From NCBI GenBank assembly GCA_020353055.1, contig CP070686.1, positions 94,804 through 158,803 of the forward strand: 64,000 bases of DNA. The letters run 5' to 3'. Made by a program: the position numbers and the translations under genes. The stretch is from a candidate division WOR-3 bacterium (GTDB taxonomy: Bacteria > Hydrothermota > Tepidihabitantia > SM23-42). Position 1 is the first letter of the stretch, and each line of letters begins with the position of its first letter. Positions 28,835 to 59,748 of this stretch are shown one piece after another. Below the pieces are notes generated by a model. The model did no database searches. It was not told the DNA's origin and saw only the letters and a list, made by a program, of their open reading frames with translations.

Positions 28835-29004
28835 TTACTCCTGAGTCCCATCCGGAAAATTCTATATTTGAAACGGCTGCTGTCAAGCGCAGTGTTTTGG
28901 ATGAATGTTGAACTTGACAACTGGAAGCAGGTGCATATTCTATATAGTGGCAAATCTGATAGTATAAGATCGCATACTCATTGACAGACAGAATAGGAGG
29001 TAAA

Positions 29005-30627
29005 ATGTCTCAATTCACGAATTTCGTCGAAAAATATCTCGAATTCAGCTGGAAGACATCACCGATCAGCGCCACGTACGCCGGTATTCATAAGTATGAT
29101 CATGAATTGGATAACGTGGAGAGCGATTTCATACAGGACATTACCAAGAAAAGAAAGGAATATCTCGATGAGCTCGAGGGCATGCCAAGCCAAGAATTGA
29201 GCGGCGAAGACCGAATTGATTGGCAACTACTGAGAAATGATATTGAATCCAGCATAAAGGATTACGAAGAAATCAGATTCTGGAAAAAACAAGCAGCATA
29301 TTACCCAGAACTGTGCGCACATGCAATGTTTATCCTGTCGGTAAGAGAATTTGCACCGCTCGGGGAGCGTTCATCGGCAATACTCTCCAGAATGCGCCAG
29401 GTCCCGCACGTCCTCAAAGAGGGCATCAAGAATCTCGACGATTGCCCGCGGTTGTTCGTAACCCTGGGTATGGAAATGACCAACGCCTGCATTTCCTTTA
29501 TCGAAGACCTTACACCAGGACTCATAAATAGTATTCCCGGATTAAAGAAAAAAATTGAAGACGCAAGCAGAGAAGCCATATCCGCGTTGCAGCAATATCG
29601 CCAGCATTTAGAGACCGAGTTATTACAGAAATCAAGGGGCGACTTTGCGATTGGGAGCACACTATTTGATTTTAAACTAAAGAACGACCACATGCTTTCT
29701 TATGATGCGCAGGATATTCTCGAAATAGGACAAGAAACAAAGAAGAAAACCGAAGAAGCCCTCAGACAGGCCGCGCACGCGATTGATTCTAATAAAGATT
29801 GGTTCGATGTTGTAGGTGACATTAAGAGAGAACACCCGCAAGCATCTGAGCTCCTGCAGACATACAAAAGAGAAATGGAATCTGCCAGGAGATTCGTAAT
29901 CGACAAAGATCTGGTTACCGTTCCTCCTGATGAACATCTGAATGTCATACCAACTCCTTCTTTCAGCCAGCCTATTATTCCATACGCTGCATACATGAAC
30001 CCGGCGCAATTCGAAGAACAGCAGACCGGCCATTTCTATGTCACCCTGGTCGATGAACGGCTGTCCCAGGAACAAAAAGAAGAGATACTCAGAGGCCATC
30101 CAAAATTCGGGATACCGGTCATAGCCCTACATGAAGGATACCCCGGTCACCACCTCCAACTTGTTATCGCCAACAAACTAAAAAACCGACTGAGACGGCT
30201 CCTCGAAACAACGGTCTTCATCGAAGGCTGGGCACTCTACTGCGAAGAAATGATGTACGAAGCAGGGTTCTATGCTGACCCACGCTCGAGACTGCTACAA
30301 CTAAAAGACCAATTATGGCGTGCTTGCCGGGTCATTATCGATGTTGGATTACATACAAAAACGATGACGTACGATCAGGCCGTCGACTTGCTCGTCAAAG
30401 ATGCAAAACTGGAACGTGTGCACGCTCAAAAGGAAGTAACACGCTACACCCTCACTCCGACCCAACCAATGAGTTACCTGATAGGCAAAAAACAGATACT
30501 CGAGTTGAAAGATGACTATCAGAAAAAAATCGGCAGCCGGTTCAACCTGCGCGAATTCCACGACAAACTGCTGAGTTTTGGCTCGATACCTGTATGTTTG
30601 ATCCGTAAAGAACTTGGATTATACTAA
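29005..30627 (+). CDS. DUF885 family protein, cytoplasmic paralog
   Basis: AGGAGG ribosome-binding site before the internal ATG at 29005. HEGYPGHHLQ motif. No signal peptide. Confidence 0.65.
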   Translation: MSQFTNFVEKYLEFSWKTSPISATYAGIHKYDHELDNVESDFIQDITKKRKEYLDELEGMPSQELSGEDRIDWQLLRNDIESSIKDYEEIRFWKKQAAYYPELCAHAMFILSVREFAPLGERSSAILSRMRQVPHVLKEGIKNLDDCPRLFVTLGMEMTNACISFIEDLTPGLINSIPGLKKKIEDASREAISALQQYRQHLETELLQKSRGDFAIGSTLFDFKLKNDHMLSYDAQDILEIGQETKKKTEEALRQAAHAIDSNKDWFDVVGDIKREHPQASELLQTYKREMESARRFVIDKDLVTVPPDEHLNVIPTPSFSQPIIPYAAYMNPAQFEEQQTGHFYVTLVDERLSQEQKEEILRGHPKFGIPVIALHEGYPGHHLQLVIANKLKNRLRRLLETTVFIEGWALYCEEMMYEAGFYADPRSRLLQLKDQLWRACRVIIDVGLHTKTMTYDQAVDLLVKDAKLERVHAQKEVTRYTLTPTQPMSYLIGKKQILELKDDYQKKIGSRFNLREFHDKLLSFGSIPVCLIRKELGLY

Positions 30628-38025: not shown

Positions 38026-39240
38026 TTACTTCACAACAACTATCTTCTCTGAAAGTAATTCATTATTATCTTCAAAAACGATGAAATAAATGCCAGGAGA
38101 AAGCGTGTATGATCCGCCATATCCAGCAGCCACTACTCTACCGCTGACGTCGACTATCTTCAGCATTCTTTCGGTATCGACTGTAATCAATCCAAAGCTG
38201 GGATTGGGCGATATCCTGAATGGATGTGCTGCGACTATGTCATCGTGTTCTGCAACACCAACATTTGTCACCGTCACGAGCATGCTATCCCTCTGCGTAT
38301 TCCCGGCTGCATCACCGGCCTCAACAATGACCCAGTAATCGCCGTTCGTGAAATCACTAGTTTCCCAGGCACAGGTTGCATCAGTACTCTCAATGAGGCT
38401 GTCGCCATCAGTATTAGAGACGATGAAAAAATACTCCCGCAGGCTGTAGTTACCCTGTGTATTGCAAGTATAGTCATCCTTATATATGACATCGACATTA
38501 TTTGTGTAATCGAGAACGCCGCAGAAGACAAACGATAGCGTGTTAGGCAGGGAATCAGCACCAAGTATTTCGTATGCAATTCTATAGGGAGTGAGCCGCT
38601 CCCAAACAGGATCGTACAGAGGAAACCCCACATCATCATAAATCCTGGCAACTATATCCACATCGCCGTGAAGATTATCGGGCTGCAGATAATTACTCGT
38701 GTTATTCTCGCAGAATGCGAACTTGTGATCTAAATAAGCGTCTTCAAAAACCGGTTTTGTCGTATCGCCGTACGGCTGGATCAAGAGCAAAGGATTCTGA
38801 ACAAAAGCCCAATCACCATATTGCCATACTGGACCTGCGTCTTTGATGCGCGCAAAGTGCAGATGGTCAAAACCGGTGATCGGCCATTCAACAAGATATC
38901 CGATGAGTTCACCCTCCAACACGTCTTCACCCAAATTCTTATGGTACTGATAAGGATCAATATGCGCGTAGAGCCATGCTTCTACCGAATCGTTGGTTTC
39001 GTAATCGGCAATTGCGAGCCGCCAATGATAATCCCCGGATATGGTGAGCCAAGCCTTCACCACTCCAGATTGTACCGCGTAAACCGGTCGATGAATAGAA
39101 TCAGCCATGACGTCGATGCCCGGATGCAGGTAAGGGGCGCCACCATAAGACTGGTATTCACCCCAGTTGTTACCCAGACCGTGCGTCGTGTCGGTCGGGG
39201 CCAGGGGCCAGCCCGTCGCGATAATGAATAATAGAATCAT
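38026..39240 (-). CDS. M23/LytM-like metallopeptidase domain protein with T9SS C-terminal sorting domain
   Basis: HPGIDV and FDHLHF motifs (HxxxD / HxH). C-terminus ISPNPSFGLITVD...IVDVSGRVV...GIYFIVFE matches a T9SS CTD. Confidence 0.55.
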   Translation of the reverse strand: MILLFIIATGWPLAPTDTTHGLGNNWGEYQSYGGAPYLHPGIDVMADSIHRPVYAVQSGVVKAWLTISGDYHWRLAIADYETNDSVEAWLYAHIDPYQYHKNLGEDVLEGELIGYLVEWPITGFDHLHFARIKDAGPVWQYGDWAFVQNPLLLIQPYGDTTKPVFEDAYLDHKFAFCENNTSNYLQPDNLHGDVDIVARIYDDVGFPLYDPVWERLTPYRIAYEILGADSLPNTLSFVFCGVLDYTNNVDVIYKDDYTCNTQGNYSLREYFFIVSNTDGDSLIESTDATCAWETSDFTNGDYWVIVEAGDAAGNTQRDSMLVTVTNVGVAEHDDIVAAHPFRISPNPSFGLITVDTERMLKIVDVSGRVVAAGYGGSYTLSPGIYFIVFEDNNELLSEKIVVVK

Positions 39241-39848
39241 TCCTGTTTCTCCCACGAGCGAGTTCGTATATCGTATGTTTCAGCAGCACCGGGCAATTGG
39301 ACCACAATGGATTTTCCGTCTGCCGAATAGTACAACTCGCTTGCATACGGAGAAGAGAGGAATTCTGTATCTATAATACTGCCATTTTCATATACAAAAA
39401 GGGTATCGGCGGAAATTATCGCAACATTTTCCCCCTTTGTGCTGCCCGTGAACAATCGGCCAGGTCGGTATATATGAACCAGATTACCATCGTCTGAGTA
39501 CACGAACAGCCCCTCTCTATCTGACGCGAAGAAAATAGAATTATCAGACGAAAATCCAAACCCGTTCGGATACACGAGTTCCTTAAGCATTTTTTCGCGA
39601 CCATCTTGATGATAAAAACACAGACGATGTTCATTCAGAGCAAAAACACTCCCGGTATTGCTAATGAAAAAGGTATTCAGGGTACTGTTGCTCTTCATGT
39701 ACACAACAACATCGTATCGGTCATACAGTACAAAAGATTCGGTCATGAGCTCTGTCCCACCACTGTATTCGACCGATGCCCGGAAGGATCCGTCATCCGA
39801 CTCAACACTTGTTGAGAAGAAAATTAACAGGGTAAGGATCAAAACATT
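39237..39848 (-). CDS. Secreted hypothetical protein
   Basis: Signal peptide from the internal ATG (MNVLILTLLIFFSTSVES). No ribosome-binding site. The start is uncertain. Confidence 0.35.
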   Translation of the reverse strand, partial: NVLILTLLIFFSTSVESDDGSFRASVEYSGGTELMTESFVLYDRYDVVVYMKSNSTLNTFFISNTGSVFALNEHRLCFYHQDGREKMLKELVYPNGFGFSSDNSIFFASDREGLFVYSDDGNLVHIYRPGRLFTGSTKGENVAIISADTLFVYENGSIIDTEFLSSPYASELYYSADGKSIVVQLPGAAETYDIRTRSWEKQE

Positions 39849-40252: not shown

Positions 40253-41299
40253 TCATTCTTTTCCACCCATGACCAGAGTGAGGGCTGCTAATGTTCGATC
40301 TATGTCATCCGCACCTATCCCGTAGTGCGTGACCATACGGAAACGTGTCGTACCAGTAGCCAACGTCATCACACCTTTCTCCGTAAGTTTAGTCACCAAT
40401 TCATCGGCAGTCATCTTATCTGTCTTGATATCAAAATATACTATGTTCGTCCAAACCTTATCCAGTTCTATGGACAAACCGGGAATTTGCGCAATACCTT
40501 CAGCCAGGCGGCGGGCATTCTTATGGTCCTCGGCAAGCCGACTGATCATTTTGCTCAAGGCAACGATCCCCGGCGCAGCGATAATCCCTGCTTGCCGCAT
40601 CCCGCCGCCAAGTAACTTCCGATTCCTTCTTGCTTCGGCAACGAACCCCCGCGCACCACATACGACAGAACCAACCGGCGCTGACAGACCCTTTGATAAA
40701 CAAAACGACAAAGAGTCTACGTGGCGCACCAAATCCATGACCTCAACCCCGAGAGCCACCACGGCATTGAATACCCGAGCGCCGTCAAGGTGTACCTTCA
40801 ATCCCCGACTGTGCGCCAACTCGCAAACCGACGCAATGTAATCACTGTCAAGCGGTGCACCGTAGCACCTGTTATGTGTATTCTCCAAACATATCAACCT
40901 GGTGCGCGGCCAGTGATCATTGATACCCCGTATTGCCGACTCAATATCTTCGATACGCATCTTGCCGTCTGACCCGTTCGCTATCGTGTGCGGATGCACG
41001 CCACCCACGGCCGACATGCTACCACATTCGTTGAGAAACATATGGGATTTGTCGCCCAGTATCACCTCTTCACCACGTCTGCAATGGGTTAACACACATA
41101 CTAAATTACCCATCGTACCGCTACTCACCAGAAGACCAGCTTCCTTCCCCATCAATTCAGCCGAGAACTCCTGCAATTTGTTTATTGTCGGGTCGTCACC
41201 AAAAACATCATCACCCAGTTCTGCGTTGCGTATCGAATCGCGCATTTCTTCCGTCGGCAGCGTAACGGTATCACTTCGTAGATCGATCATTTTCATCAC
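40253..41299 (-). CDS. ltaE: Low-specificity L-threonine aldolase
   Basis: PLP-dependent fold type I. Conserved N-terminus DLRSDTVT and the overall order of motifs for threonine aldolase. Confidence 0.8.
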   Translation of the reverse strand: MMKMIDLRSDTVTLPTEEMRDSIRNAELGDDVFGDDPTINKLQEFSAELMGKEAGLLVSSGTMGNLVCVLTHCRRGEEVILGDKSHMFLNECGSMSAVGGVHPHTIANGSDGKMRIEDIESAIRGINDHWPRTRLICLENTHNRCYGAPLDSDYIASVCELAHSRGLKVHLDGARVFNAVVALGVEVMDLVRHVDSLSFCLSKGLSAPVGSVVCGARGFVAEARRNRKLLGGGMRQAGIIAAPGIVALSKMISRLAEDHKNARRLAEGIAQIPGLSIELDKVWTNIVYFDIKTDKMTADELVTKLTEKGVMTLATGTTRFRMVTHYGIGADDIDRTLAALTLVMGGKE

Positions 41300-43164: not shown

Positions 43165-44874
43165 TTATTTCATCAGTACCGCTTTTAGTGTGCGCACCGA
43201 TTCGTCGATTTCGAATCTGATGAAATACACGCCGGCAGCAAACCCTTCAGATTTCGGGTTCCAGTTTGCACTATGCAAGCCGCTCGTAAAAGTGGCGTCA
43301 ACCAGCTCCCGGACGCGCCGTCCCGCGGTATCAAACACAATCACGTTCACACGGGCCGCTTCGCCGAGTTCGAAATCAATCGATATGTGCCGGTTGAAGA
43401 CCGTCGGTGTGACGTTCACAACAAAGGGGTGTTGAACCGCGGAGAATTGCTCGTCAATACCTGTCATCCGGTAGCCAACAAATGTTACGTGTCTCGTTTC
43501 ACCGGCCGATAGTCTCTGGTCACCCTGTTTCCAGCAGTACATCAGCACGAAGTTATCCGTAATAACCGCGTCATAACAGTTACTGTCGATAATGACCGCG
43601 CTATCATAGCGAACCGGCAAGAAAGCAAATGGATGGCGCCGGCCAGAGGTTCCGCTGAACCCGGGGTCTACACTATCGTAATTGGCCTCAATCCAGAAAG
43701 TGACGGTGTCTATCAGAGTGCCCGACGTTATATCCAAACCCTGATCCCACCAGGGATCACGCCACGCAAACATTCTGATGTCTGCGGCAGGGTCGCCATA
43801 GTAACAACAAGCGTCGCGGTCATAGTCCAGACCCGTCGGATCCGTTCCGGGTGTATTGTTTATCTGATCGAATAGCAGTTGTTGATTATTTGCATGAAAC
43901 GCCTCCGCATAAGTGTAACGGTCCTGCGCCATTTGTAGAAGACTACCCAGTCCCCAGAGCATATAACCATAGACCGTGGTTGGCATATAGCCGGTCATCG
44001 CGATCGCACCACCTGAACCAAGCCAGCCGTAAGGCATGTAGTTGGGATTACTGGGGTTACCGACAAGGCAATTGCCCATCGCATTATATACTTTGGGATT
44101 GACCGAACTGATATTCTGATTGACCCCAATACGAGGATCTCCGTAGACGCCCCCTGCCTCAGACCTGAAATATCCTTCCAGATCAGGCGTTGGATAGTGC
44201 AACTGCCAGACATCAACATTTCCATGGCCACTCGTTATGAAATAGTCAACCGGGCCTTGTATATTATATCCCAGTATCGTATCATCGATTCCATCATTAA
44301 GATAGTTGACGAGCAGTGTGCACCGGTCATCCGGGCAACGCGGTGGACATATGGTATCGATAATGAGTGACGTATCAGGCAATTTAAATCTTATTCTGTT
44401 ATACTGAGCCTCGAAGGTGGAAATCCCCTGATAGAACCAGCTGTCCCAGGTACAATTCGTACCGCCGAGTATAGTGCGTAACTGCAACGTCTGATTCTGC
44501 ACGATCCTCATCGCATCAGTATGATCATAACCGGTCACGAGACCCCAGATCGCATCACCATAAGGGTCGGCGTCGAGTTCGCGTGTTATAGCCCAAACAT
44601 CATGTACGAATGAAGTCTGTATTTCGTACCAACTCCTTCCGACAAAAGCAATATAGTCGGGCATGTATCCAGCCAATACGCTTTTCACTTCCTGGAGCGA
44701 ATCTTGCCAGACAAAGACCTGACCATTGTGCCTGGCGACCAATGAATCGACAACCTCACTCCAGCCGGCCATGCCATTCGTCTCGGTGCTCACCACAATT
44801 GCATAACGCTGGGCAAATGCGGCAGTCACGAACGCCAAACAGAATGCAACAACCACACTTCTTCTCATATTCAT
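43165..44874 (-). CDS. Clan CD (gingipain/C25-like) cysteine peptidase-like protein with T9SS C-terminal sorting domain
   Basis: Signal peptide. His-Gly (SGHG) and downstream Cys (GNC) spaced as in clan CD peptidases; this assignment is weak. C-terminus ISIDFELGEAARVNVIVFDTAGRRV...GVYFIRFE is a T9SS CTD. Confidence 0.5.
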   Translation of the reverse strand: MNMRRSVVVAFCLAFVTAAFAQRYAIVVSTETNGMAGWSEVVDSLVARHNGQVFVWQDSLQEVKSVLAGYMPDYIAFVGRSWYEIQTSFVHDVWAITRELDADPYGDAIWGLVTGYDHTDAMRIVQNQTLQLRTILGGTNCTWDSWFYQGISTFEAQYNRIRFKLPDTSLIIDTICPPRCPDDRCTLLVNYLNDGIDDTILGYNIQGPVDYFITSGHGNVDVWQLHYPTPDLEGYFRSEAGGVYGDPRIGVNQNISSVNPKVYNAMGNCLVGNPSNPNYMPYGWLGSGGAIAMTGYMPTTVYGYMLWGLGSLLQMAQDRYTYAEAFHANNQQLLFDQINNTPGTDPTGLDYDRDACCYYGDPAADIRMFAWRDPWWDQGLDITSGTLIDTVTFWIEANYDSVDPGFSGTSGRRHPFAFLPVRYDSAVIIDSNCYDAVITDNFVLMYCWKQGDQRLSAGETRHVTFVGYRMTGIDEQFSAVQHPFVVNVTPTVFNRHISIDFELGEAARVNVIVFDTAGRRVRELVDATFTSGLHSANWNPKSEGFAAGVYFIRFEIDESVRTLKAVLMK

Positions 44875-44911: not shown

Positions 44912-45712
44912 CTACTTGGGTGAAACTAAACGCTCCTTCACATCATTCCAATTCATACTCTTCACTTCTTCCCAGAACCAAGCCTCTGCATCTTCGCGGC
45001 ATTTCTTCAAAGCATTCACATCGCTCACATAATACAACGGATGAAGCCTCTCGACCATTTCCTCCGGCATTTCATAATAAACATAGGTTGTGAAGAACCT
45101 GTAATGCCAGGGAGAACACTTCATTCGCAAAACCTCGACCAACGGACGAAGGATATACCCCAAATAGTAGCTCAAGGCTTCCATCGCATTACCGCGGTTC
45201 AGTTCTTTAAGCACGAGTGCCTGAAACATCTGAAAAGTCGTCTTGTGTCTTTCAAAACGCTTCTTCATTTCTTGAAAATATTTTTCGATGTCCATCGGGT
45301 CATCTTTGACCAATCCAGCTTTGTCAAAATGTACAAGTGGTTCGCCGTGTATACTGTACTGCAAGAATTTTTCCTTGCTCGATTTCTTCATTATGGCAGC
45401 ATCGATGAAGAGAAACGGGCTTGCTTCCTTCAGACGCCAAAAGACCTGCGAATTCCCATGCCACGTCGGCTCGGGTACGCGAAATTTCAGATCGATTTCG
45501 CCCAAACTGCAGAGCGTTTGTTCTATAAGCGTAATAGCGTTTTCGATATGATCGTCATCACACACTACATACAAATCGATGTCCGACCATTCGTCGACCC
45601 GGCCGAAACTTGCCGCTCCAGCCTCCCAGGCTGCGTGCACGTAGTCCGCTTGCTTCAATTTCTTAACGACGACAGCGACAATATCATCGCGATTTAAGTT
45701 ATGTTTATTCAT
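44912..45712 (-). CDS. Nucleotidyltransferase domain protein (ANT(6)/AadK-like aminoglycoside adenylyltransferase family)
   Basis: AWEAGAASFGRVDEWSDIDLYVV, a nucleotidyltransferase GS...D.D motif. GGAGG ribosome-binding site before the internal ATG at 45712. Confidence 0.55.
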   Translation of the reverse strand: MNKHNLNRDDIVAVVVKKLKQADYVHAAWEAGAASFGRVDEWSDIDLYVVCDDDHIENAITLIEQTLCSLGEIDLKFRVPEPTWHGNSQVFWRLKEASPFLFIDAAIMKKSSKEKFLQYSIHGEPLVHFDKAGLVKDDPMDIEKYFQEMKKRFERHKTTFQMFQALVLKELNRGNAMEALSYYLGYILRPLVEVLRMKCSPWHYRFFTTYVYYEMPEEMVERLHPLYYVSDVNALKKCREDAEAWFWEEVKSMNWNDVKERLVSPK

Positions 45713-45741
45713 GCATATTCCTCCCATCTTTTCGAAATCAG

Positions 45742-46488
45742 TCACATATAAGGATTAACCTTCTTCTCTTTATTGATTGTGGTCTGTCTACCGTGTCCAG
45801 GATACACAACTGTTTGCCCGGGCAGTTTCCCCAAGCGCCTAAGCGAGTTGATCATTTCCTCTTCCGAAGACCCGGCCAAATCTATTCTACCCCAAGAGCC
45901 TTCAAGCAAAGTGTCACCGGAAAACACGAGGTGCTCCTTCTCGTAGTACAGGGAAATGCCGCCTCTGGTATGTCCTGGCGTATGGAGCACTTCAAGCTCT
46001 ATACCACCGAATTTTATCCAATCTTTGTCACGCAATGTTCGATCTGCTGGCGGTGATAGTTCTGCCTCCAGAATCACAACCCCGCATCCGGATATCGTGC
46101 GTACCTTATCTGCGTCAACATCAAGTTTTACGATTTCCTCACGGCCACAAACTGGACATCGATGCGGCTTAATGAAAGCCTCAGATTCTTCTGCTCCGCG
46201 CCATGGTTCGATCAGAAGCGGCGCATCATTCGCGTGTATCAATATTTTGGCACCGGTATGTTCCTTGATAGCACGGTTACCAGACGTGTGGTCAGGATGA
46301 CCATGTGTATTCACTATGAATTTTACATTCGCACCCAATTCATCAATGGCATGGATTACACGGTTCGCCTCACCCACCTTCGTTCCGGGATCCACAACCA
46401 ATGCCTCGCGCGATTCCTTGCCCACAAGAATATAGCAATTCGTCGGCAGGTAGCCGACTTGCAGGCATTTCATTTTTATGTCGGTCAT
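45742..46488 (-). CDS. MBL-fold metallo-hydrolase (glyoxalase II-like) with zinc-ribbon insert
   Basis: HGHPDHTSGN (HxHxDH) motif. Inserted CPVCG. Internal start chosen. Confidence 0.65.
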   Translation of the reverse strand: MTDIKMKCLQVGYLPTNCYILVGKESREALVVDPGTKVGEANRVIHAIDELGANVKFIVNTHGHPDHTSGNRAIKEHTGAKILIHANDAPLLIEPWRGAEESEAFIKPHRCPVCGREEIVKLDVDADKVRTISGCGVVILEAELSPPADRTLRDKDWIKFGGIELEVLHTPGHTRGGISLYYEKEHLVFSGDTLLEGSWGRIDLAGSSEEEMINSLRRLGKLPGQTVVYPGHGRQTTINKEKKVNPYM

Positions 46489-46633: not shown

Positions 46634-47731
46634 TCAGTCTTCGAATAGTTTCTTGTACTCGCTGTATCCTTCCTTCTCGAGGTCTTCCTTCGGGATGAAA
46701 CGCAGTGATGCTGAATTAATGCAGTACCGGAGGCCGGTCGGCTCAGGACCATCATCAAATAAGTGACCAAGATGAGAATCACCCGCCTTGCTGCGCACCT
46801 CGGTACGTACCATTCCATGGCTCGAATCGACCTTTTCAATGATAGTTTCTTTGTCTATCGGTTTGAAAAAACTGGGCCAACCTGTGCCTGATTCGAACTT
46901 GTCCCTTGAGCTGAACAGCGGTTCACCGGACACAACATCAACATAGATGCCTTCACGTTTATTGTTCCAGTACTCGTTCTGAAAAGGCGGCTCAGTCCCG
47001 CACTGCTGCGTCACTTCGTACTGCACCGGCGTCAACTTCTCCTTGATCTCATCCTGTGGCGGTTTCTCATACGTCTGTTCCTTCTCCGCGGGCACGGTAT
47101 CCTTGTCCTCATCCCAGATCTCTTTCAGAAACTGCTCGCGGCCAGAAAAGAATTTATAACTTTTGTAGCGAGCTGGACTCTTCTTGTAGAAATCTTTGTG
47201 GTAATCTTCTGCCTCATAGAACGCTGTAAATGGCCGGATCTCCGTAACGATCGGTTTATCATATCTTCCCGATTTCTCCAGCTCGGCTTTCGATTCTTGG
47301 GCGATATTCTTCTGCTCATCGCTATGATAAAATATGGCTGTCTTATATTGAGAACCGCGGTCAACGAACTGCCCACCCTGGTCTGTCGGGTCTATCTGCG
47401 TCCAGAAGACATCCACCAATTTCTGGTAGTCGACCTTTGATGGGTCATAAGTTATTTGAACCGTTTCAAGATGCCCAGTCCCGCCACTTGATACTTGCTC
47501 GTATGTCGGATTTTCTCTCTGACCGCCCGAATATCCCGGGACGACGTCGATGACACCGTCCAAATTTTCAAAAGGCGGCTCCATACACCAGAAACAACCG
47601 CCGGCAAAAGTTGCTTTTTCATATTTATCATTCTTGTTCATCACGCTCCCCTTTTCCTCGCCCGCGCTTTCACTTCTGCACACACTTACAGCAAAAAGCC
47701 CGAGCACTGTAGCCAACGACAACCATTTCAT
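46634..47731 (-). CDS. msrAB: Secreted bifunctional peptide methionine sulfoxide reductase MsrA-MsrB
   Basis: MsrA GGCFWCME and Msr[11 protein letters not shown]...RYCINS. Signal peptide. Confidence 0.85.
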
Positions 47732-48054: not shown

Positions 48055-49206
48055 TCATTTACCTGACTTCACCAGTTTAACAGCCCTGCTGGTGACCGGA
48101 CTCTGCAAAAAATAAACACCCACCGGCAACTCCCGACCGGCGTCATCCGTACCATCCCAACTCACCGATATCTGATTGCCGATAATAGATACCAGTTCTG
48201 AGAGATCCTTCAGCAATCGCCCGGAAACATCGTATATCCTCAATGCATTTGCCTGATCGTTATCGGTCAACTGGTATCGGATACCAATTCTGCTGCTGAA
48301 GGGATTTGGCCAGACTTCTATTCTTGCCAACTCTACAGTACCGGCCTCATCGCCCAGTATCCCGACCTGGCTGACATCGTATACATATATCGAGTCCAAT
48401 TCGTAGCACGAAACCCAGAGCCGCTCGGTCACCGAGTCGTAGGCAAGTCCTGATGGATACGTTGCGGGATCCGACGCCCACTGGTCAACCCACGCGCTGG
48501 CAGCGAGATTCCACGAATTCACCAGGTTAGAACCGTAGTTGCCATCGCAAGTCAATAATTGCGGTGCAATCCTGGGCAGAAAAGTCAAACCGAACGGACG
48601 GGCATTCGGTGAAGAATAGGTTGCGGCAATCGAATCGATCTGCAGACCGCTGTTAGTATCGATCACAGATATATATGACTGATTACCCAATGCAGCGTAG
48701 AGATATGCGCCATCCCACGCCAGATCAAAAGGATGGGTAGTGGGTGCCGGAAAACTCTTTTCGATACTCATCGTGGCCGTATCCAACTTATAAATATAAC
48801 CAATGATGTACTCTGAATACCAGAGATATTCACCATCCCAAGCAAGACCACAGGAAAAATCATTGATTGCACTGAACGTGTCGATCGCCACGCCGCTGTC
48901 CGGGTGGAGCTTATAGATCTTGGCGCCGTACAGGCTATTCCCGTCGCCGCTATTCGCCGCCCACAAATACTGGCCATCGTATGCCAGACCCCGTATTGCA
49001 CTGTCCGGAACCGGGAACGCACCGATCAACGGTGGAGTCAACCTTAGCACCTCGGCCCCCGTTGATATATTGCTTTTCTGAAAGTGGTGACCGGGTAGAG
49101 ACAAATCATGCTCAGCATATGTCATGCTCCAGCAAATCATGACAAGAACGGGTAAAAATCGATTGCAGAATTCACGCATAACATCCCCTTTCAGTGGACC
49201 GTACAT
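48055..49206 (-). CDS. Beta-propeller repeat protein with T9SS C-terminal sorting domain
   Basis: Repeats GLAYDGQYLW, GLAWDGEYLW, DLAWDGAYLY. C-terminus VWPNPFSSRIGIRYQ...IYDVSGRLL...GVYFLQ is a T9SS CTD. Confidence 0.6.
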   Translation of the reverse strand: MYGPLKGDVMREFCNRFLPVLVMICWSMTYAEHDLSLPGHHFQKSNISTGAEVLRLTPPLIGAFPVPDSAIRGLAYDGQYLWAANSGDGNSLYGAKIYKLHPDSGVAIDTFSAINDFSCGLAWDGEYLWYSEYIIGYIYKLDTATMSIEKSFPAPTTHPFDLAWDGAYLYAALGNQSYISVIDTNSGLQIDSIAATYSSPNARPFGLTFLPRIAPQLLTCDGNYGSNLVNSWNLAASAWVDQWASDPATYPSGLAYDSVTERLWVSCYELDSIYVYDVSQVGILGDEAGTVELARIEVWPNPFSSRIGIRYQLTDNDQANALRIYDVSGRLLKDLSELVSIIGNQISVSWDGTDDAGRELPVGVYFLQSPVTSRAVKLVKSGK

Positions 49207-52312: not shown

Positions 52313-53209
52313 TCAAACCGTCGAGTGCTGATGAGCATCTACCACCTTTCTAATCGCCCTTATGTGCTCCGGCGTTGTGCCGCAGCAGCCGCCGATGATA
52401 CCTACACCCGCAGTCAGCAATTCTTTAGCCTTCTCCGCAATGAAATGCGGGGTCTCCGGATAGATGACTCTGCCGTCTTTCAGTTCAGGAATACCTGCAT
52501 TTGACTGGATAATGATCGGGCGCCGCGTGAACTTTTTGTACTCGCGTGCGATAGAGATCATGTTCTCAATACCGTTACCACAATTGGAACCCACGACATC
52601 CGCACCTGCGGCCTCAAGACCTCGGAGTGATTCCTCAATGGTCACGCCCATGATCGTATAGAAACCCCTGGGTATACGATTGAAAGTCATCGTCGCCATG
52701 ACCGGTATGGATTTGAATTCTTTTGCCGCTTTCACCGCGCACGCCGCTTCATTCAGGTCACTCATGGTCTCAATGCAAATCACATCTGCGCCAGCACTGA
52801 TAAGCGCGCCGATCTGTTCTCTGAACACTTCAAACATCTCTGCTGTCTCAACATCACCATATGGTTTAAGAAATTTTCCGGTAGGACCGCAGGAACCTGA
52901 AACATAAGCGCGGTCACCTACTACTTTCTTCACAGCCAGAACCGCATTCCTGTTTATCTGATCGACCTTACCTTCCAAAGAATATTGAGCTAATTTAAGA
53001 CGTGAGGCACCGAACGTATTGGTCTGGATGATTTGAGCACCCGCATCCAGATACTCGCGCGCGATTTCTTCCAGCACAGCAGGTTGTTCCAGATTGAACG
53101 ATTCGGGAGGTTTTCCTGACGCAAGCCCACGCTCCATTATCATCGTTCCAATGGCACCATCGGCAACCAATACCTCATTATCGGACAGGCGACCGAGCAA
53201 TGACTTCAT
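52313..53209 (-). CDS. Homocysteine S-methyltransferase domain protein (MetH Hcy-binding module as a stand-alone protein)
   Basis: C-terminal zinc ligands GGCCGTTPEH. Overall TIM-barrel S-methyltransferase pattern. Confidence 0.75.
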   Translation of the reverse strand: MKSLLGRLSDNEVLVADGAIGTMIMERGLASGKPPESFNLEQPAVLEEIAREYLDAGAQIIQTNTFGASRLKLAQYSLEGKVDQINRNAVLAVKKVVGDRAYVSGSCGPTGKFLKPYGDVETAEMFEVFREQIGALISAGADVICIETMSDLNEAACAVKAAKEFKSIPVMATMTFNRIPRGFYTIMGVTIEESLRGLEAAGADVVGSNCGNGIENMISIAREYKKFTRRPIIIQSNAGIPELKDGRVIYPETPHFIAEKAKELLTAGVGIIGGCCGTTPEHIRAIRKVVDAHQHSTV

Positions 53210-53210
53210 C

Positions 53211-53849
53211 TCAGGATCCGGAAACGAGTTTCTTTATACAATCCACCGCCTGCACGCTATCATAACCGTAAGCGTCGGCACCGATGTGCTCGGCGAACTC
53301 ACCGGATAGCGGGGCACCGCCAATGATCGTCTTTATTCTACCGTTCAGTCCTTTTTCCTTCAACTGTTCAATTACTTTTTTCATGACCGGCATGGTCGTA
53401 GTAAGCAATGCCGACATACCTATGATTTTCGCGTTCCGCTCGACCGCGGTGTCGATGAATTTGTTCGGCGCTACGTCATTGCCTAAATCAATAACCTCAA
53501 ACCCTGCACCTCTCAACATTATCGCAACCAGGTTCTTGCCGATATCGTGAATATCGCCCTGTACCGTACCAATGACCACGCGCCCACGCGACGGTACTTC
53601 ATCTTTGAGAAAAAGCGGTTTCAATATATCCATACCAACATGCATCGCCTTGGCCGCAAGTAATACTTCGGGCAAGAAGATCTCATGTTTCTTGTATCTA
53701 TCTCCGATCACATTCATACCGGCGATTAAACCGTTGTCCAGGATGTCTTTCGGTGCCAATTCGTTATCCAATGCCTGACGTAGAAGTTGACCGATCGTGT
53801 CACTATCGCCACGCTGCATCGCTACTGCAATTTGTTCCAATAGATCCAT
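53211..53849 (-). CDS. Corrinoid (cobalamin)-binding protein
   Basis: B12-binding DxHxxG motif (GDIHDIGKNLV), preceded by a helical cap domain. Confidence 0.75.
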   Translation of the reverse strand: MDLLEQIAVAMQRGDSDTIGQLLRQALDNELAPKDILDNGLIAGMNVIGDRYKKHEIFLPEVLLAAKAMHVGMDILKPLFLKDEVPSRGRVVIGTVQGDIHDIGKNLVAIMLRGAGFEVIDLGNDVAPNKFIDTAVERNAKIIGMSALLTTTMPVMKKVIEQLKEKGLNGRIKTIIGGAPLSGEFAEHIGADAYGYDSVQAVDCIKKLVSGS

Positions 53850-53850
53850 T

Positions 53851-54621
53851 TCACTCCCTTCGACGCTTTTTTGTTGATGCGGGCTGGGTACGCACATCCC
53901 CGGTACCGGACGACTGCCTGAGCCTGCTTATCCTCTCACGGCACGACCGTGTCTCACATTGGCTACAAAATGGATACGCATCCGTGAAAGAGTGTATCTC
54001 AGGGCTGCCAGTAATTAGTACGCCAGAAGCAGATTTCAACGGCTCCATGAGGTAACTTGCACGCAGTGTTATGCCGATCTGCTCGGGCTTAAGATATTCG
54101 AACAACCTCTTCTGCCCGCTGACATGCCAGCCACAATACCCCGGACTGTAGCGCATCACAAGAGCATTACCCCCGATTCCACCGCTACGCCTCAGGGTAT
54201 CGAGAAAGTATGTCTCTACCCTATCAGCCGTCTTTTCGACGCCAGCCGAGGCAACCGAATCCAGCATGCTGCCCAACGCAAAATCTTTGCCAAGAAAATA
54301 TTCGTTGATCCTGTCGTGCACTTCTTGACCTACGGTGACCGCAAAAAGAGCAAGCTTGTCTGCCTTATGAAAAACCTCGGCGACCGGCGTGTCCGGATCA
54401 TTTCGCCCTTCTCCTTTGTACACGAGCTGAAAATCATCTTTGCTGATATCCGATACTAGCCCGGTCGGATTTGCACACGCCATGAAAATTTTTGCCGCAT
54501 GTTCGAAAAGCGAAATAATATTGTCGGACACCTTGGCGCCAAAGGAAATGCCTTGTAGTGCGAATGAATCTTTCTGGCTCGGCGCTATTTCCTGCGCGGT
54601 GATTTCGATCACTTCCTTCAT
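53851..54621 (-). CDS. MetH activation (AdoMet-binding reactivation) domain-like protein
   Basis: RYSPGYCGW aligns to the RxAPGYPACP motif of the methionine synthase activation domain. Its ATG overlaps the upstream stop as ATGA. Confidence 0.5.
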   Translation of the reverse strand: MKEVIEITAQEIAPSQKDSFALQGISFGAKVSDNIISLFEHAAKIFMACANPTGLVSDISKDDFQLVYKGEGRNDPDTPVAEVFHKADKLALFAVTVGQEVHDRINEYFLGKDFALGSMLDSVASAGVEKTADRVETYFLDTLRRSGGIGGNALVMRYSPGYCGWHVSGQKRLFEYLKPEQIGITLRASYLMEPLKSASGVLITGSPEIHSFTDAYPFCSQCETRSCRERISRLRQSSGTGDVRTQPASTKKRRRE

Positions 54622-56105
54622 AAAGCGATTTCAGGCAACCTTTCCATACCACAGCGCTGCGCCTCTCGTAGCATTGTTTTTTTCAATTCCTTTTTCACAT
54701 CCTCGGAAAGACGCGGAGGTTCATATCTATTGAGCAATTTGCTCACTTCACGCCGTCCCCGCTCGAGCAGGGTCAAACTGCCCTCTTCCTGCCACCTCGT
54801 TCGATTTGCCCGGTCAATAATCGCACCAGGGAGACAAAGTTCTTCCCTGAGATACTTCTGCGTATGTTCCGAGATCAACAGATGCTTTTCTTTAAGCAAC
54901 TCTTCGAACCGAGGAAGAGCAGGAAAGTCTTCTTTCGGCTGTATGCCTCTAATCAACCGGAGTGCCATCCCACAGATCTCGTTGTCCAGAACGAGCTTTT
55001 CGAGACTTTGACAACTCTCGAAATCGAGCATGCCCGGTCCAGATATGTTATTTATACCGGCGAGTGCGGCCAGGGTCGCGCCCATCGAGGATTCGAGTCC
55101 TGCCTGCGCATCTAGCTGCTTGGCGTCGCTCAATGAGATATACGCCTGGGTAGGTATGTGGAGATATTTGCCGATTTCATTATAGGCGCAGTCGATCATC
55201 TGAGTGCCGATTGCCCCCATCGGCGTTGTTTCGTAACGGATGTCAAATATCGCCGGCGAACCGCCGTATAGCACAGGCGCACCGGGATTAGTGACCTGAC
55301 TTATCACCAACCCGCTGAGCGTCTCGGCCGTATGCTGCACCAAGGTACCTATGAGTGTCACCGGAGCCATGAATCCTGAAAGAGGCATTGAAATAAATTC
55401 AACAGGTATCGAAGATAAGGCACAGTCAACTACGTTCTGTGATGTTACGTCACTCCATTTCAACGGCGAGGTTGGGCAGCAAGAGAATATTGTGAGTGGC
55501 TTGGCAACCAATTCTTCGGCACTTCCCCGTACCACCATCTGAAGATCCCTCATGATGTTGAACGCCTCGATCGTGAAGGCTCCAGTCACGACCGGTTTCT
55601 CGCAATAGAGCAAACTAAGATAGAGCCGGTAACTATCAGAGATCCTTTCATGAACATCAGAGGGAATGAACGCGGTTGATTGCGACGCGATATTATCCAG
55701 AAGGCTCATCAGTTTGGCGTATTTGACATAATCAGCGGTCAACGGTTTCCTGATTTCTTGAGTTTTTCCGTCCAGTATATTCAACGCCGCGGAACCGGGT
55801 GTGAAATATACGTTATACCCCGAAAGATCGAGCGTCTCATCACCCATAACATCATACAGTTTGACAGAATCGGGTGTCGTTTTCAGTGCTTTGTCGATTA
55901 TGTCATTCGTGAACAACACGTGATTTTTGCTTTTGTCCACACTGGCGCCATGATCCTGTAGCATCGACAGGATGGCGTCGTTATGGATTTCGAACCCGAG
56001 TTTGCATAGAACATCACGAGCCTCGGACATGATCCTTTCGATAGTGGTATCGCTGAGGAATTTGAGAACCGGCCTTGGATTATTCAAATCTTCATTCTTT
56101 AACAT
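54618..56105 (-). CDS. MttB superfamily (non-pyrrolysine) substrate:corrinoid methyltransferase
   Basis: 495-aa uninterrupted ORF with MttB-family TIM-barrel conservation. No in-frame UAG. First gene of the corrinoid operon. Confidence 0.7.
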   Translation of the reverse strand: MLKNEDLNNPRPVLKFLSDTTIERIMSEARDVLCKLGFEIHNDAILSMLQDHGASVDKSKNHVLFTNDIIDKALKTTPDSVKLYDVMGDETLDLSGYNVYFTPGSAALNILDGKTQEIRKPLTADYVKYAKLMSLLDNIASQSTAFIPSDVHERISDSYRLYLSLLYCEKPVVTGAFTIEAFNIMRDLQMVVRGSAEELVAKPLTIFSCCPTSPLKWSDVTSQNVVDCALSSIPVEFISMPLSGFMAPVTLIGTLVQHTAETLSGLVISQVTNPGAPVLYGGSPAIFDIRYETTPMGAIGTQMIDCAYNEIGKYLHIPTQAYISLSDAKQLDAQAGLESSMGATLAALAGINNISGPGMLDFESCQSLEKLVLDNEICGMALRLIRGIQPKEDFPALPRFEELLKEKHLLISEHTQKYLREELCLPGAIIDRANRTRWQEEGSLTLLERGRREVSKLLNRYEPPRLSEDVKKELKKTMLREAQRCGMERLPEIAL

Positions 56106-56168
56106 GGCAAATCTTATTCAGATTACGCTGGATTTCAAGTGGGGAGACAGTTCTCCAATGCAAAACTG

Positions 56169-56585
56169 CTACTCGCCGATCAGTTTTATCAATACTCTCT
56201 TCTTGCGCTGACCGTCAAATTCACCGTAGAAAACCTGTTCCCACGGACCGAAATCCAACTTGCCGTCAGTAACAGCAACCACTACCCCGCGGCCCATGAA
56301 TTGCCTTTTTATATGAGCATCGGCGTTTGACTCACCGGTCAGGTTATGACGGTATCTTTTAGGGTCGTGCGGGATATTTCGCTCTAGCCATTGCAAGAAG
56401 TCATCATGCAGCCCTGCTTCATCGTCATTGATGAAGACGCTTGCCGTTATGTGCATGGCGTTCACGAGACAAAACCCATCGCTTATTCCACTTTCACGCA
56501 AGGCCAACTCGACCTCTGGCGTAATGTTGAGCAGTTCCACCCGCTTCCTTGTGTTGAACCATAATTCTTTTCTGTAGTTCTTCAT
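56169..56585 (-). CDS. yjbQ: YjbQ/UPF0047 family protein (secondary thiamine-phosphate synthase enzyme)
   Basis: [11 protein letters not shown] and the C-terminal LIKLIGE match YjbQ-family conservation. Confidence 0.75.
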
Positions 56586-56590
56586 ATCCA

Positions 56591-56971
56591 CTACTCCCCG
56601 GTTTTCTGACACACATAAAACACGGAACCCTGATACTCGGGATTAGTCTTGAACTCATCGATCTCCCTTTGAACATTCTTCACTACGGAGAGAACGCTCG
56701 CGTTCTTCTTGCATCCGTGAAGGAGCCCGCCGATCCGCCGTTCAATACTTTGCTTTAGTTTATCCAACGCCGTCTGGTCGATGTCGACACCGACAACCCG
56801 CCCTTTGCTTAACCGTGCGAGTTCCAGTGTCACGACCCCGGTCCCGCAACCAATATCGAGGATATTGGGCCCATCTAATCTTGGGAGTATTCCAAAGGCC
56901 TTCCGCGTGAAAGGCAGCAAATTTGTTCTCAAACGATCGCGGTCTATCAAAGATGTTTCATCAGTACTCAT
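56591..56971 (-). CDS. Short class I SAM-dependent methyltransferase-like protein (possibly truncated)
   Basis: Motif [12 protein letters not shown]. Only 126 aa. Confidence 0.4.
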
Positions 56972-58561: not shown

Positions 58562-59266
58562 CTACCTTCTGCGCACGAAGTATTTGAGCATCACCCGTGA
58601 ATCATCAATGTTGTCCGTAATGAATGCAGTTTTTAGTAAAGATTCAAATGAATTTCTCTCTTTGTGAATAAGCGGTCTGCCATAATGCTCCTCCAGTCTG
58701 AACATCGTATCAACATAAGGATGTTCAAGATTCGCAATATCCACCACCATCTTCGCGTTCTGCTTTAGCGCACGGCATAACTCTTTTAAGGCATATGTTG
58801 TATACTCAAGTGTATAGTACTCCAGCACCCCGATCACCGTAGCAATATCGAAGTACTCATCCCCGAACGGTAAACTGGTAATATCTGTGTGGTATAAACC
58901 GCCGATCGAAATACGATGCTTTTCAACATAAGCCCGCATCGCACCGATCAGTGCCGGGCTGATGTCAACGCCGTAGTAAACAGAAGGCCAAACATGCAAA
59001 CGATAGTTCGCAAGGTTGGCGCAACAACCAGCATCGAGATAACACATCCCTTCTTTCGGGTCTAAATACTCTTTTATGTCAGGTGCCGCGCTACTACACC
59101 ATTCATCCTCAACAAGCTCATCGTAACCCGGTAATATCTTTATTTCCCCGGGAACAGAATCACGTGGCTCAATGCCAGCCGCAAACTGCGCAGCAGTTAG
59201 GTCATATGCTTTGCCAATCCGCAATAGTTGTTCGTTCATTGAGTGCTTCTGAACCGGGGAAACCAC
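58562..59266 (-). CDS. Class I SAM-dependent methyltransferase
   Basis: Motif I variant YLDAGCCANLANY. Motif II VDISPAL. Confidence 0.5.
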   Translation of the reverse strand: MVSPVQKHSMNEQLLRIGKAYDLTAAQFAAGIEPRDSVPGEIKILPGYDELVEDEWCSSAAPDIKEYLDPKEGMCYLDAGCCANLANYRLHVWPSVYYGVDISPALIGAMRAYVEKHRISIGGLYHTDITSLPFGDEYFDIATVIGVLEYYTLEYTTYALKELCRALKQNAKMVVDIANLEHPYVDTMFRLEEHYGRPLIHKERNSFESLLKTAFITDNIDDSRVMLKYFVRRR

Positions 59267-59748
59267 ATGGGCACAGATTTTATGTAATCCTCATATTCTT
59301 TGCCGAACTTGGAGATCAGTAATCGCTCCTCATACCGGGAAATGACATGGTAGAATACCACAATTACTGCACATAACACCCCAGAAAAAATGGATAGCGT
59401 GAAGGTCAGCAGGCCAAAGTAGAAAAGAACACATCCCAGGTATATCGGGTGTCTGACTCGATTGAATACACCCGCCCTGATGACCGCAGGCTCTTTACGC
59501 TCCTCGCCAAAAACGATACGCATGCCTTCTTTTGCAAAATACACCGCCGCAGCGAGGAAAAGCAATCCCAAAGGTATTCTGATAGATAGCGACACGTATT
59601 GCGCAAGTAAGGTCGAAAAACGTAATATAAAAGAATCAAACACCCATACAATCAAGAAGATGATGAGTAAAATGATCTGGCCCGCATCTCCAAATGGATG
59701 TTCACCCGCCAGGTCTTCTCGATTTTCATGACCCCACTGCCGGCTCAT
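59236..59748 (-). CDS. Isoprenylcysteine carboxyl methyltransferase (ICMT)/phospholipid methyltransferase family membrane protein
   Basis: RHPIYLG ... EExLxxKFGxEYxxYxxxV C-terminal motif. TM helices. Confidence 0.65.
   Translation of the reverse strand: MSRQWGHENREDLAGEHPFGDAGQIILLIIFLIVWVFDSFILRFSTLLAQYVSLSIRIPLGLLFLAAAVYFAKEGMRIVFGEERKEPAVIRAGVFNRVRHPIYLGCVLFYFGLLTFTLSIFSGVLCAVIVVFYHVISRYEERLLISKFGKEYEDYIKSVPMWFPRFRSTQ

Follow-up and report, generated by a model that had tools for sequence, protein, structure and literature searches.

Can methionine be synthesized by a corrinoid-dependent relay in which a methyltransferase of the MttB superfamily takes the place of the methyltetrahydrofolate-binding module of MetH? 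This question is raised by four tightly packed open reading frames (ORFs; about 3.8 kb, 52313-56105, minus strand) in the genome of a candidate division WOR-3 bacterium, within the 64-kb stretch analyzed here (contig CP070686.1 of assembly GCA_020353055.1, positions 94,804 to 158,803; hereafter the window). They encode, in order of transcription, a pyrrolysine-free homologue of MttB, an activation protein, a corrinoid protein and a homocysteine (Hcy) S-methyltransferase. The components are identified by their folds and by their catalytic and metal-binding motifs, and the module is conserved across distant genomes. Together, the four genes probably constitute a self-contained, cobalamin-dependent and folate-independent methionine synthase that works as a multi-protein relay.

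How the methyl group moves, how the components interact and how the cofactor is repaired may be pictured by analogy with MetH, Thermotoga maritima TM0269 and the MtgBC systems. The MttB-family TIM-barrel enzyme would take up the methyl group of a small methylated compound and hand it to the Co(I) form of the corrinoid protein, from which the MetH-type zinc Hcy methyltransferase would pass it, as methyl-Co(III), to homocysteine, yielding methionine and Co(I). Upon oxidation of the cofactor to Co(II), the activation protein would restore it through reductive methylation with S-adenosylmethionine (AdoMet), and the electron for this repair could possibly be supplied via a metal center on four invariant cysteines.

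Conservation and Organization of the Gene Cluster

A single scan of 185,579 species-representative genomes with two peptide patterns derived from this MttB clade revealed relatives of the mttB-like gene in at least 585 species-level genomes. Locus analyses were performed on the best 80 of these carrier loci (L001-L080), where the MttB homologues are 69-80% identical to the window protein. Gene order was assessed by tblastn with the four window proteins at the 55 loci where the DNA downstream is free of gaps for at least 2.9 kb. The mttB-like, activation, corrinoid and Hcy genes follow each other in the same order and on the same strand at 52 of these 55 loci, spanning about 15 phylum-level labels, and therefore the arrangement is far beyond chance. 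A gene-neighborhood survey of the co-occurrence of MttB, corrinoid and Hcy methyltransferase genes had been suggested in the first-pass annotation, made from the sequence alone. Median spacers in the related loci are 6, 40, and 14 nt; the Hcy gene is invariably the last one and starts 4-14 nt past the corrinoid gene in most loci.

According to submitter labels, the best loci belong to WOR-3, TA06, Stahlbacteria, Fermentibacteria/Aegiribacteria, Zixibacteria, Ignavibacteria/Bacteroidota, Phycisphaerae/Planctomycetota, Acidobacteriota/Aminicenantes, Cloacimonadota, Elusimicrobiota, Gemmatimonadota, Krumholzibacteriia, Calditrichia, Fischerbacteria, and Desulfobacterota. Median identity to the window proteins across loci is 73% for MttB, 45% for the activation protein, 62% for the corrinoid protein, and 61% for the Hcy protein. 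The median identity of MttB homologues is 71% between phylum-level groups and 75% within them, the partners reaching 45-63% between groups. Such high cross-group identity suggests strong constraint and/or horizontal spread of the whole module, or mis-binning. Some cross-group pairs of MttB homologues are more than 90% identical. At two loci, L001 (9790-9889) and L073 (about 4020), runs of N representing scaffold gaps or masking interrupt the cluster, and the apparent gene losses there are artefacts. One of the two assemblies is labeled as a complete WOR-3 chromosome; the cluster looks shortened in both.

In the window, the coordinates and junctions were read directly from the sequence and agree with the minus-strand operon described in the first-pass annotation. 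The mttB-like and activation genes share an ATGA overlap (54621-54618), while 1-nt gaps separate the activation and corrinoid genes (TGA-a-ATG, 53853-53847) and the corrinoid and Hcy genes (TGA-g-ATG, 53213-53207). The mechanically defined ORF of the corrinoid gene reaches into the gene before it, to an ATG at 53897, but an alignment of 67 homologues favors the ATG at 53849 as the start. With these junctions, the four genes are translationally coupled. The four domain assignments of the first-pass annotation were each confirmed by profile searches with Pfam and NCBIfam, and the motifs it quoted, RYSPGYCGW in the activation protein, DIHDIG in the corrinoid protein and GGCCGTT in the Hcy protein, were all found. 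A promoter and terminator scan of the region gave nothing above shuffled expectation, the promoter-like site listed in Table 1 and found by a consensus scan being only a positional hint.

The MttB Homologue

The first protein matches the MTTB family PF06253 over residues 7-482 (1.8e-73; 247.7 bits vs a cutoff of 25). Its score with TIGR02369, the equivalog model of true trimethylamine MttB, is 363.6 bits, under the cutoff of 525. Among the PDB structures compared (MtgB, MttB, and 4yyc), it is equidistant from MtgB of Desulfitobacterium hafniense (2qne/9yce; 167 bits) and MttB of Methanosarcina barkeri (7xcl; 164 bits). Identity to homologues from many phyla is 69-86%, the closest relatives (80-86%) coming from candidate division WOR-3.

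The protein has the fold of pyrrolysine MttB and a strongly similar active site (S-x-SDAK..DxQAG.E..GxGML), but the pyrrolysine itself is replaced. No in-frame stop codon occurs inside the mttB-like gene, and in the phmmer alignment to 7xcl Leu325 stands opposite Pyl334 (SLSDAK vs S-Pyl-SDAK). All 80 homologues have Leu at this position, encoded by six different Leu codons. Two other active-site residues of MttB (PMC9842639) differ in their fate: Met249 is retained as M240, whereas Tyr364 is replaced by Ser355.

The residues of MtgB that bind glycine betaine, Y97, R312, H348, and F356 (Picking et al., 2026; PMC13080624), correspond to S105, Q320, S355, and E363 in the window protein, all four of them conserved to at least 98% in this clade; this mapping was done by hand from the printed 9yce/2qne alignment and is least certain in the loop near S105. 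Because of the Leu at the pyrrolysine position and the replacement of all four MtgB residues, the protein appears to be neither a trimethylamine enzyme nor a betaine enzyme of known type, with a distinct and strictly conserved pocket. Glycine betaine, if held as it is in MtgB, is an unlikely donor. The betaine or carnitine that the first-pass annotation had proposed for an assay of methionine formation thus finds no support in the sequence, and its broader proposal of a quaternary-amine donor remains a guess.

The Rfam model PYLIS_3 matches the mttB-like gene above its gathering threshold (45.7 bits; Table 1), beginning exactly at the Leu codon. Further matches lie at L050 (7530-7627), L006 (2858-2957), L043 (4512-4611), L067 (5866-5963), and L039 (5119-5217); no other Rfam family matched the window or the 17 related loci searched. 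A pyrrolysine insertion sequence was considered as an RNA element here and rejected, as the region folds no better than its shuffles (z = +0.99). Most likely, the match reflects coding-sequence homology with true mttB; the model is able to fire on mttB homologues devoid of pyrrolysine.

The Homocysteine and Corrinoid Proteins

The last protein of the cluster belongs to the S-methyl_trans family PF02574 (4.8e-70; 237.1 bits). Its closest match is the Hcy domain of T. maritima MetH (1q7m; 189 bits), with the motifs GSNCG and GGCCGTTPEH aligned, followed by other MetH proteins (101-154 bits), BHMT (78 bits), and HMT/MmuM (58 bits). MtaA-type methylcobamide:coenzyme M methyltransferases scored only 18-19 bits. 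The protein groups with the MetH Hcy domains, and the grouping with methylcorrinoid methyltransferases of tetrahydrofolate (THF) or coenzyme M (CoM) that the first-pass annotation had named as refuting its proposal is not observed. The zinc ligands of T. maritima MetH are matched by C210, C283, and C284, which reach at least 98% conservation among 58 homologues. By sequence, this protein can be assigned to the MetH-type homocysteine S-methyltransferase domain.

The corrinoid protein comprises the B12-binding (PF02310; 5.5e-29) and B12-binding_2 (PF02607; 4.9e-23) domains, both above their cutoffs. It scored best with models of corrinoid proteins cognate to methylamine and betaine methyltransferases, reaching 207.6 bits with TIGR02370, just under the cutoff of 215.3, while the MetH model gave 149 bits. 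Its scores with MtgC-specific models are far beneath their cutoffs.

The Activation Protein

The match of the second protein to Met_synt_B12 (PF02965; 1.8e-9; 37.9 bits vs a cutoff of 25) is partial, covering profile positions 119-251. An AlphaFold2 model built with 38 homologues (pLDDT 89.3) was compared by Foldseek. The top match was T. maritima TM0269 (1j6r; E 4e-12, target TM 0.83), followed by the reactivation domains of Escherichia coli, Thermus and human MetH (E from 1e-7 to 1e-4), and the first unrelated fold appeared only at E > 0.1. The assignment of an activation domain, which could have failed in a profile search, has thus held. In the predicted structure the protein has the MetH activation fold, and AdoMet binding is predicted. 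Around its RxxxGY AdoMet motif, R157, S159, P160, G161, and Y162 are invariant in the 38 aligned homologues.

Four cysteines, C163 (in SPGYCGW), C219, C222, and C227, are likewise invariant in this alignment and at least 98% conserved in 69 homologues from the loci. The last three form the motif C219-x2-C222-x4-C227 in a C-terminal extension. TM0269 has SPGYGDL in place of SPGYCGW and ends short of the extension, so that all four cysteines are absent from it, as they are from the other known activation domains compared here. A profile search against 1.84 billion representatives retrieved 5278 relatives of the activation protein, 266 of them at E <= 1e-30. Both cysteine motifs are present in 142 of the best 150 50%-identity representatives, and all 150 are stand-alone proteins of about 190-330 aa. 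The four cysteines may form a candidate metal site (Fe-S or Zn) beside the AdoMet motif.

Absence of Other Partners

A Pfam scan of every window ORF of at least 225 aa detected no PF00809 pterin methyltransferase, RamA (DUF4445), MetH or MetE, upholding the earlier statement that the window lacks a pterin methyltransferase and RamA. Neither DUF1638 nor MtgD was found in the window or flanks. In the 80 loci, no pterin-binding protein is encoded within 6 kb of the cluster and no RamA was found, and a regular-expression search for pterin-binding motifs, a weak test, found none in the window or loci. Clustering of 582 flanking ORFs from the 80 loci revealed no recurrent transporter, pterin methyltransferase, RamA or betaine genes and no conserved neighbor: the commonest flanking family, an unrelated one, is present in 11 of the 80 loci. 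The recurrent families comprise proteins with tails of the type IX secretion system (T9SS), an ABC ATPase, cyclophilin, TPR proteins, a permease, a SAM methyltransferase, an SDR protein, and EamA, none of them with an evident connection to methyl transfer. At the two loci devoid of the activation gene, L017 and L057, no RamA-like substitute occurs nearby.

Comparison with Known Systems

In metagenome-assembled genomes (MAGs) of Ca. Electryoneota (AABM5-125-24), Williams et al. (2022; Environ Microbiol; PMC9324843) described the same four-gene content as a "novel methionine synthase gene cluster," in which an MtgB/MttB homologue devoid of pyrrolysine is encoded together with a homocysteine S-methyltransferase, a corrinoid protein and an activation protein of the MetH type. 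These authors found the cluster in diverse bacteria, placed its MttB homologue in an uncharacterized clade apart from MtgB and MttB, and hypothesized corrinoid-dependent methionine synthesis, without naming the donor (PMC9324843). Their account is one paragraph of an in silico MAG study, and the window comes from a WOR-3-type organism. The window cluster has every component of their description; orthology is presumed from this published description. The novelty implied in the first-pass annotation is therefore lost, both cluster and hypothesis having been published. The window cluster is a further example of a type already described in silico, an uncharacterized variant of the MetH and MtgBC relays.

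The view of the first-pass annotation that known MttB systems pass the methyl group only to THF or CoM is out of date. Genetic work on Ruegeria pomeroyi has revealed that an MttB-family betaine methyltransferase and an Hcy module rely on a single corrinoid protein (Mausz et al., 2025; PMC12478193). In this MtgBCDE system, as in the three-part MetH of Phaeobacter inhibens (PMC12478193; PMC5764234), the MttB-family enzyme (MtgB), the corrinoid protein (MtgC) and the Hcy module (MtgE) are separate proteins like those of the window. However, MtgBCDE needs the pterin methyltransferase MtgD, and reactivation involves RamA-like (DUF4445) and DUF1638 proteins and no PF02965 (PMC5764234). Its genes are dispersed in aerobic Proteobacteria, mtgE usually lying away from mtgBCD, and MtgB acts on glycine betaine. 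The window cluster, in contrast, is a tight operon with a MetH-type activation protein, no pterin module or RamA nearby, and no betaine-binding residues.

With MetH, including T. maritima TM0268 and the separate TM0269, the cluster shares the Hcy module, the B12 cap and Rossmann domains with DxHxxG, and a precedent for stand-alone activation. It differs from MetH in the absence of PF00809, the MttB-family protein in first position and the encoding of all modules by separate genes, each protein scoring far under the TIGR02082 cutoff of 1010, and from TM0269 in the four invariant cysteines. The combination of a pyrrolysine-free MT1 with a corrinoid protein of the same family is also known from MtgB-MtgC-MtgA of D. 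hafniense and MtcB/MtpB/MtyB-MtqC-MtqA of Eubacterium limosum. Those systems, however, are catabolic, pass the methyl group to THF via a pterin methyltransferase, and use RamA-type ATP-dependent reactivation. True MttB, too, has another partner, MtbA/CoM instead of an Hcy methyltransferase. Finally, the folate-independent "core" methionine synthases (MesA-D and core-MetE; PMC7857596, PMC7005905) likewise bypass methyl-THF and are thought to use a methyl-corrinoid protein, but they are MetE-type enzymes (PF01717) with no MetH Hcy domain and no MttB partner, the proposed donors being CoFeSP or MtrA. In surveying folate-independent methionine synthases, Price et al. (2021) make no mention of MttB.

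Proposed Function and Alternative Explanations

The AdoMet-type repair in place of RamA, the single mttB-like copy, the absence of catabolic neighbors and the small genomes point to an anabolic role. Repair by the AdoMet-dependent MetH mechanism, unlike that by ATP-dependent RamA, is typical of low-flux biosynthetic enzymes. The methionine synthase reading is also favored by the independent arrival of Williams et al. (2022) at this hypothesis and by the corrinoid protein shared between MttB-family enzyme and Hcy module in Ruegeria.

Several observations weigh against a corrinoid-dependent methionine synthase. The literature searched contains no biochemical or genetic work on the four-gene cluster. 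The MtgB betaine-binding residues are all replaced, and pyrrolysine is absent. The Ca. Electryoneota genomes that carry the cluster also encode a full MetH (PMC9324843); the module need not be a housekeeping synthase. Related stand-alone Hcy modules make methionine from dimethylsulfoniopropionate (DMSP) or betaine in vitro without cobalamin (PMC12366255). The activation gene is missing at L017 and L057, and L074 has the mttB-like gene alone. Neither a SAM nor a cobalamin riboswitch was detected at Rfam gathering thresholds in the whole window and 17 related loci, and hence there is no regulatory link to methionine.

Part of this evidence could be accommodated by other explanations. The proteins might form a catabolic, MtgBC-type system that demethylates methylated amines and has THF as its main acceptor, reached via a pterin methyltransferase encoded elsewhere, with the Hcy module as a side branch on a shared methyl-corrinoid pool, as proposed for Ruegeria MtgBCDE. 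This is unlikely, even though Ruegeria MtgC serves both betaine demethylation and methionine synthesis, the corrinoid protein scores highest with MtgC- and MtbC-type models and the portion of the genome examined is 64 kb. The window and the 6-kb surroundings of the 80 loci lack a pterin-binding protein, the repair module is of the MetH type, each locus carries one mttB-like copy with no transporter or downstream demethylation genes, and the Hcy gene is a fixed partner, whereas mtgE is usually apart from mtgBCD in Ruegeria-type marine bacteria. Quite unlikely is a fully split MetH in which the MttB-like TIM barrel is a non-homologous stand-in for the folate module and the donor is still 5-methyl-THF or another methyl-pterin. 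A complete folate-dependent MetH may accompany the cluster in the same genome, which points to another donor, and the weak motif test for pterin binding was negative. To our knowledge, no member of PF06253 uses a pterin. Such a replacement would find some basis in the common architecture of MttB, MeTr and the MetH folate module, all of them TIM barrels activating a methyl-nitrogen for cobalt (PMC9842639); the small pocket residues S105 and S355 would leave room for a larger substrate, and the unusual conservation of the MttB homologue, compared with its partners, fits a universal intracellular substrate.

It is improbable that the Hcy methyltransferase acts alone on S-methylmethionine, DMSP or betaine, like MmuM, BHMT or Phaeobacter Bmt, while the MttB-corrinoid-activation trio serves an unlinked acceptor. 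The protein is far closer to the MetH Hcy domain than to BHMT and HMT/MmuM, its gene is the invariant end of the module, and a corrinoid relay without an acceptor methyltransferase would be incomplete. On the other hand, PF02574 includes several cobalamin-independent enzymes, and Bmt, the Hcy module of a split MetH, produces methionine from DMSP and betaine in the cobalamin-free assay mentioned above. In a reversed flow, the Hcy-type enzyme would move a methyl group from methionine or another methyl-thioether to the corrinoid, and the MttB-like enzyme would pass it on to an amine acceptor; no precedent for this is known in either family. Many carrier lineages ferment protein and amino acids. 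Methyl transfer from methylthiols to corrinoids does exist in methanogens. Both half-reactions would, however, be thermodynamically unfavorable, methionine being a poor donor and quaternary or protonated amines good ones, and this direction of flow is extremely improbable.

A bolder extension of the folate-independent methionine synthase is conceivable, if rather doubtful. The module would then be an unrecognized major type of methionine synthase, present in at least 585 species-level genomes, with a donor used by no characterized MttB-family enzyme (neither trimethylamine nor betaine bound as in MtgB). Its repair subunit would be a new metal-bearing activation domain (Cys4, possibly Fe-S) able to accept electrons without a flavodoxin-type partner, and it may be the sole methionine route where "MttB" is the only corrinoid methyltransferase reported.

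Implications for Metabolism and Annotation

Beyond the published description, the present analysis adds the breadth and rigidity of the module, an active site that is neither of the MttB nor of the MtgB kind, the Cys4 signature of the activation protein, and a warning on annotation. Proteins of this clade are routinely annotated as "trimethylamine--corrinoid protein Co-methyltransferase," which, judging from their active-site residues, is probably wrong. This label already stands behind ecological claims of trimethylamine use and even of mercury methylation (PMC12484752).

If the proposed function is correct, many uncultured anaerobes, including members of WOR-3, Zixibacteria, Phycisphaerae, Ignavibacteria, Aminicenantes, Fermentibacteria, and Cloacimonadota, would make methionine from a methylated compound other than methyl-folate, and their sulfur amino acid and B12 economy would be tied to an environmental or intracellular methyl donor. 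The Cys4 signature could represent a new way of supplying the electron for cobalamin repair. Being a self-contained system of four genes, the cluster makes the hypothesis open to heterologous expression.

Genomic Neighborhood and Other Features of the Window

TABLE 1. Positions of the cluster genes, their key motifs and other features in the window.
Feature	Position	Strand	Remark
mttB-like gene	54618-56105	-	495 aa; pyrrolysine-free MttB-superfamily methyltransferase; presumed substrate:corrinoid methyltransferase (MT1)
Leu325 codon TTG	55131-55133	-	position of pyrrolysine-334 in Methanosarcina MttB
PYLIS_3 match	55034-55133	-	most likely coding-sequence homology
Activation protein gene	53851-54621	-	256 aa; stand-alone, MetH-type (AdoMet-binding, reactivation; predicted); R157-x3-G161-Y162 motif
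C163 codon	54133-54135	-	one of four invariant cysteines
C219-x2-C222-x4-C227 motif	53941-53967	-	with C163, four invariant cysteines
Corrinoid (cobalamin-binding) protein gene	53211-53849	-	212 aa; cap domain and Rossmann B12 domain
DxHxxG motif (DIHDIG)	53538-53555	-	corrinoid protein
Homocysteine S-methyltransferase gene	52313-53209	-	298 aa; stand-alone, MetH Hcy-domain type
Zinc cysteine C210	52580-52582	-	aligned to T. maritima MetH
Zinc cysteines C283/C284	52358-52363	-	aligned to T. maritima MetH
Promoter-like TTGAAA-16-TAAGAT	56111-56138	-	weak; just 5' of the mttB-like ATG
UPF0047 (YjbQ-like) gene	56169-56612	-	directly 5' of the cluster
126-aa ORF	56591-56971	-	probably truncated or decayed
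Fused MsrA-MsrB methionine sulfoxide reductase gene	46634-47731	-	
Beta-eliminating lyase gene (PF01212)	40253-41299	-	
PEMT/ICMT-family membrane methyltransferase gene	59236-59748	-	
DUF885 paralogue	20047-21747	-	566 aa
DUF885 paralogue	28981-30627	+	548 aa
ORF with no Pfam match at E <= 1e-3	43165-44874	-	569 aa
ORF with no Pfam match at E <= 1e-3	44912-45745	-	277 aa

The genes located 5' of the cluster in the window code for a UPF0047 protein, cyclophilin, an EamA transporter, and Tpt1; they recur at this place in WOR-3 chromosomes only, so that a WOR-3-type source of the window is most likely, and the UPF0047 gene has its position directly before the cluster in the closest WOR-3 genomes alone. 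The 126-aa ORF, whose 22-nt overlap reaches the start of the UPF0047 gene, resembles class-I SAM methyltransferase folds in their N-terminal half only, and probably represents a truncated or decayed gene.

In five Ignavibacteria-like loci (L005, L008, L028, L045, and L046), an 18-bp perfect or near-perfect palindrome, TACGTAAGTACTTACGTA, is located about 150 nt 5' of the mttB-like start. It is intergenic (e.g., L008, about 7790-7830), lying between the cluster and a divergent gene for a MarR-GNAT fusion protein. The palindrome is likely an operator, which implies lineage-specific transcriptional control through a ligand.

Other window genes related to methionine or methyl transfer are those for the fused MsrA-MsrB methionine sulfoxide reductase, the PF01212 beta-eliminating lyase and the PEMT/ICMT-family membrane methyltransferase; none of them is conserved beside the cluster in other genomes. 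The large ORFs of the window encode a PilY1-like protein, T9SS-tailed proteins, DUF885 proteins, peptidases, transporters and similar proteins. Secreted proteins with FlgD-Ig/Por_Secre_tail C-terminal sorting domains of the T9SS, one of them 1560 aa long, are encoded at 12769-17451, 38026-39255, and 48055-49206 (-), as would fit a source in the FCB group or WOR-3. The two DUF885 paralogues lie 7 kb apart on opposite strands, and the two ORFs with no Pfam match are adjacent.

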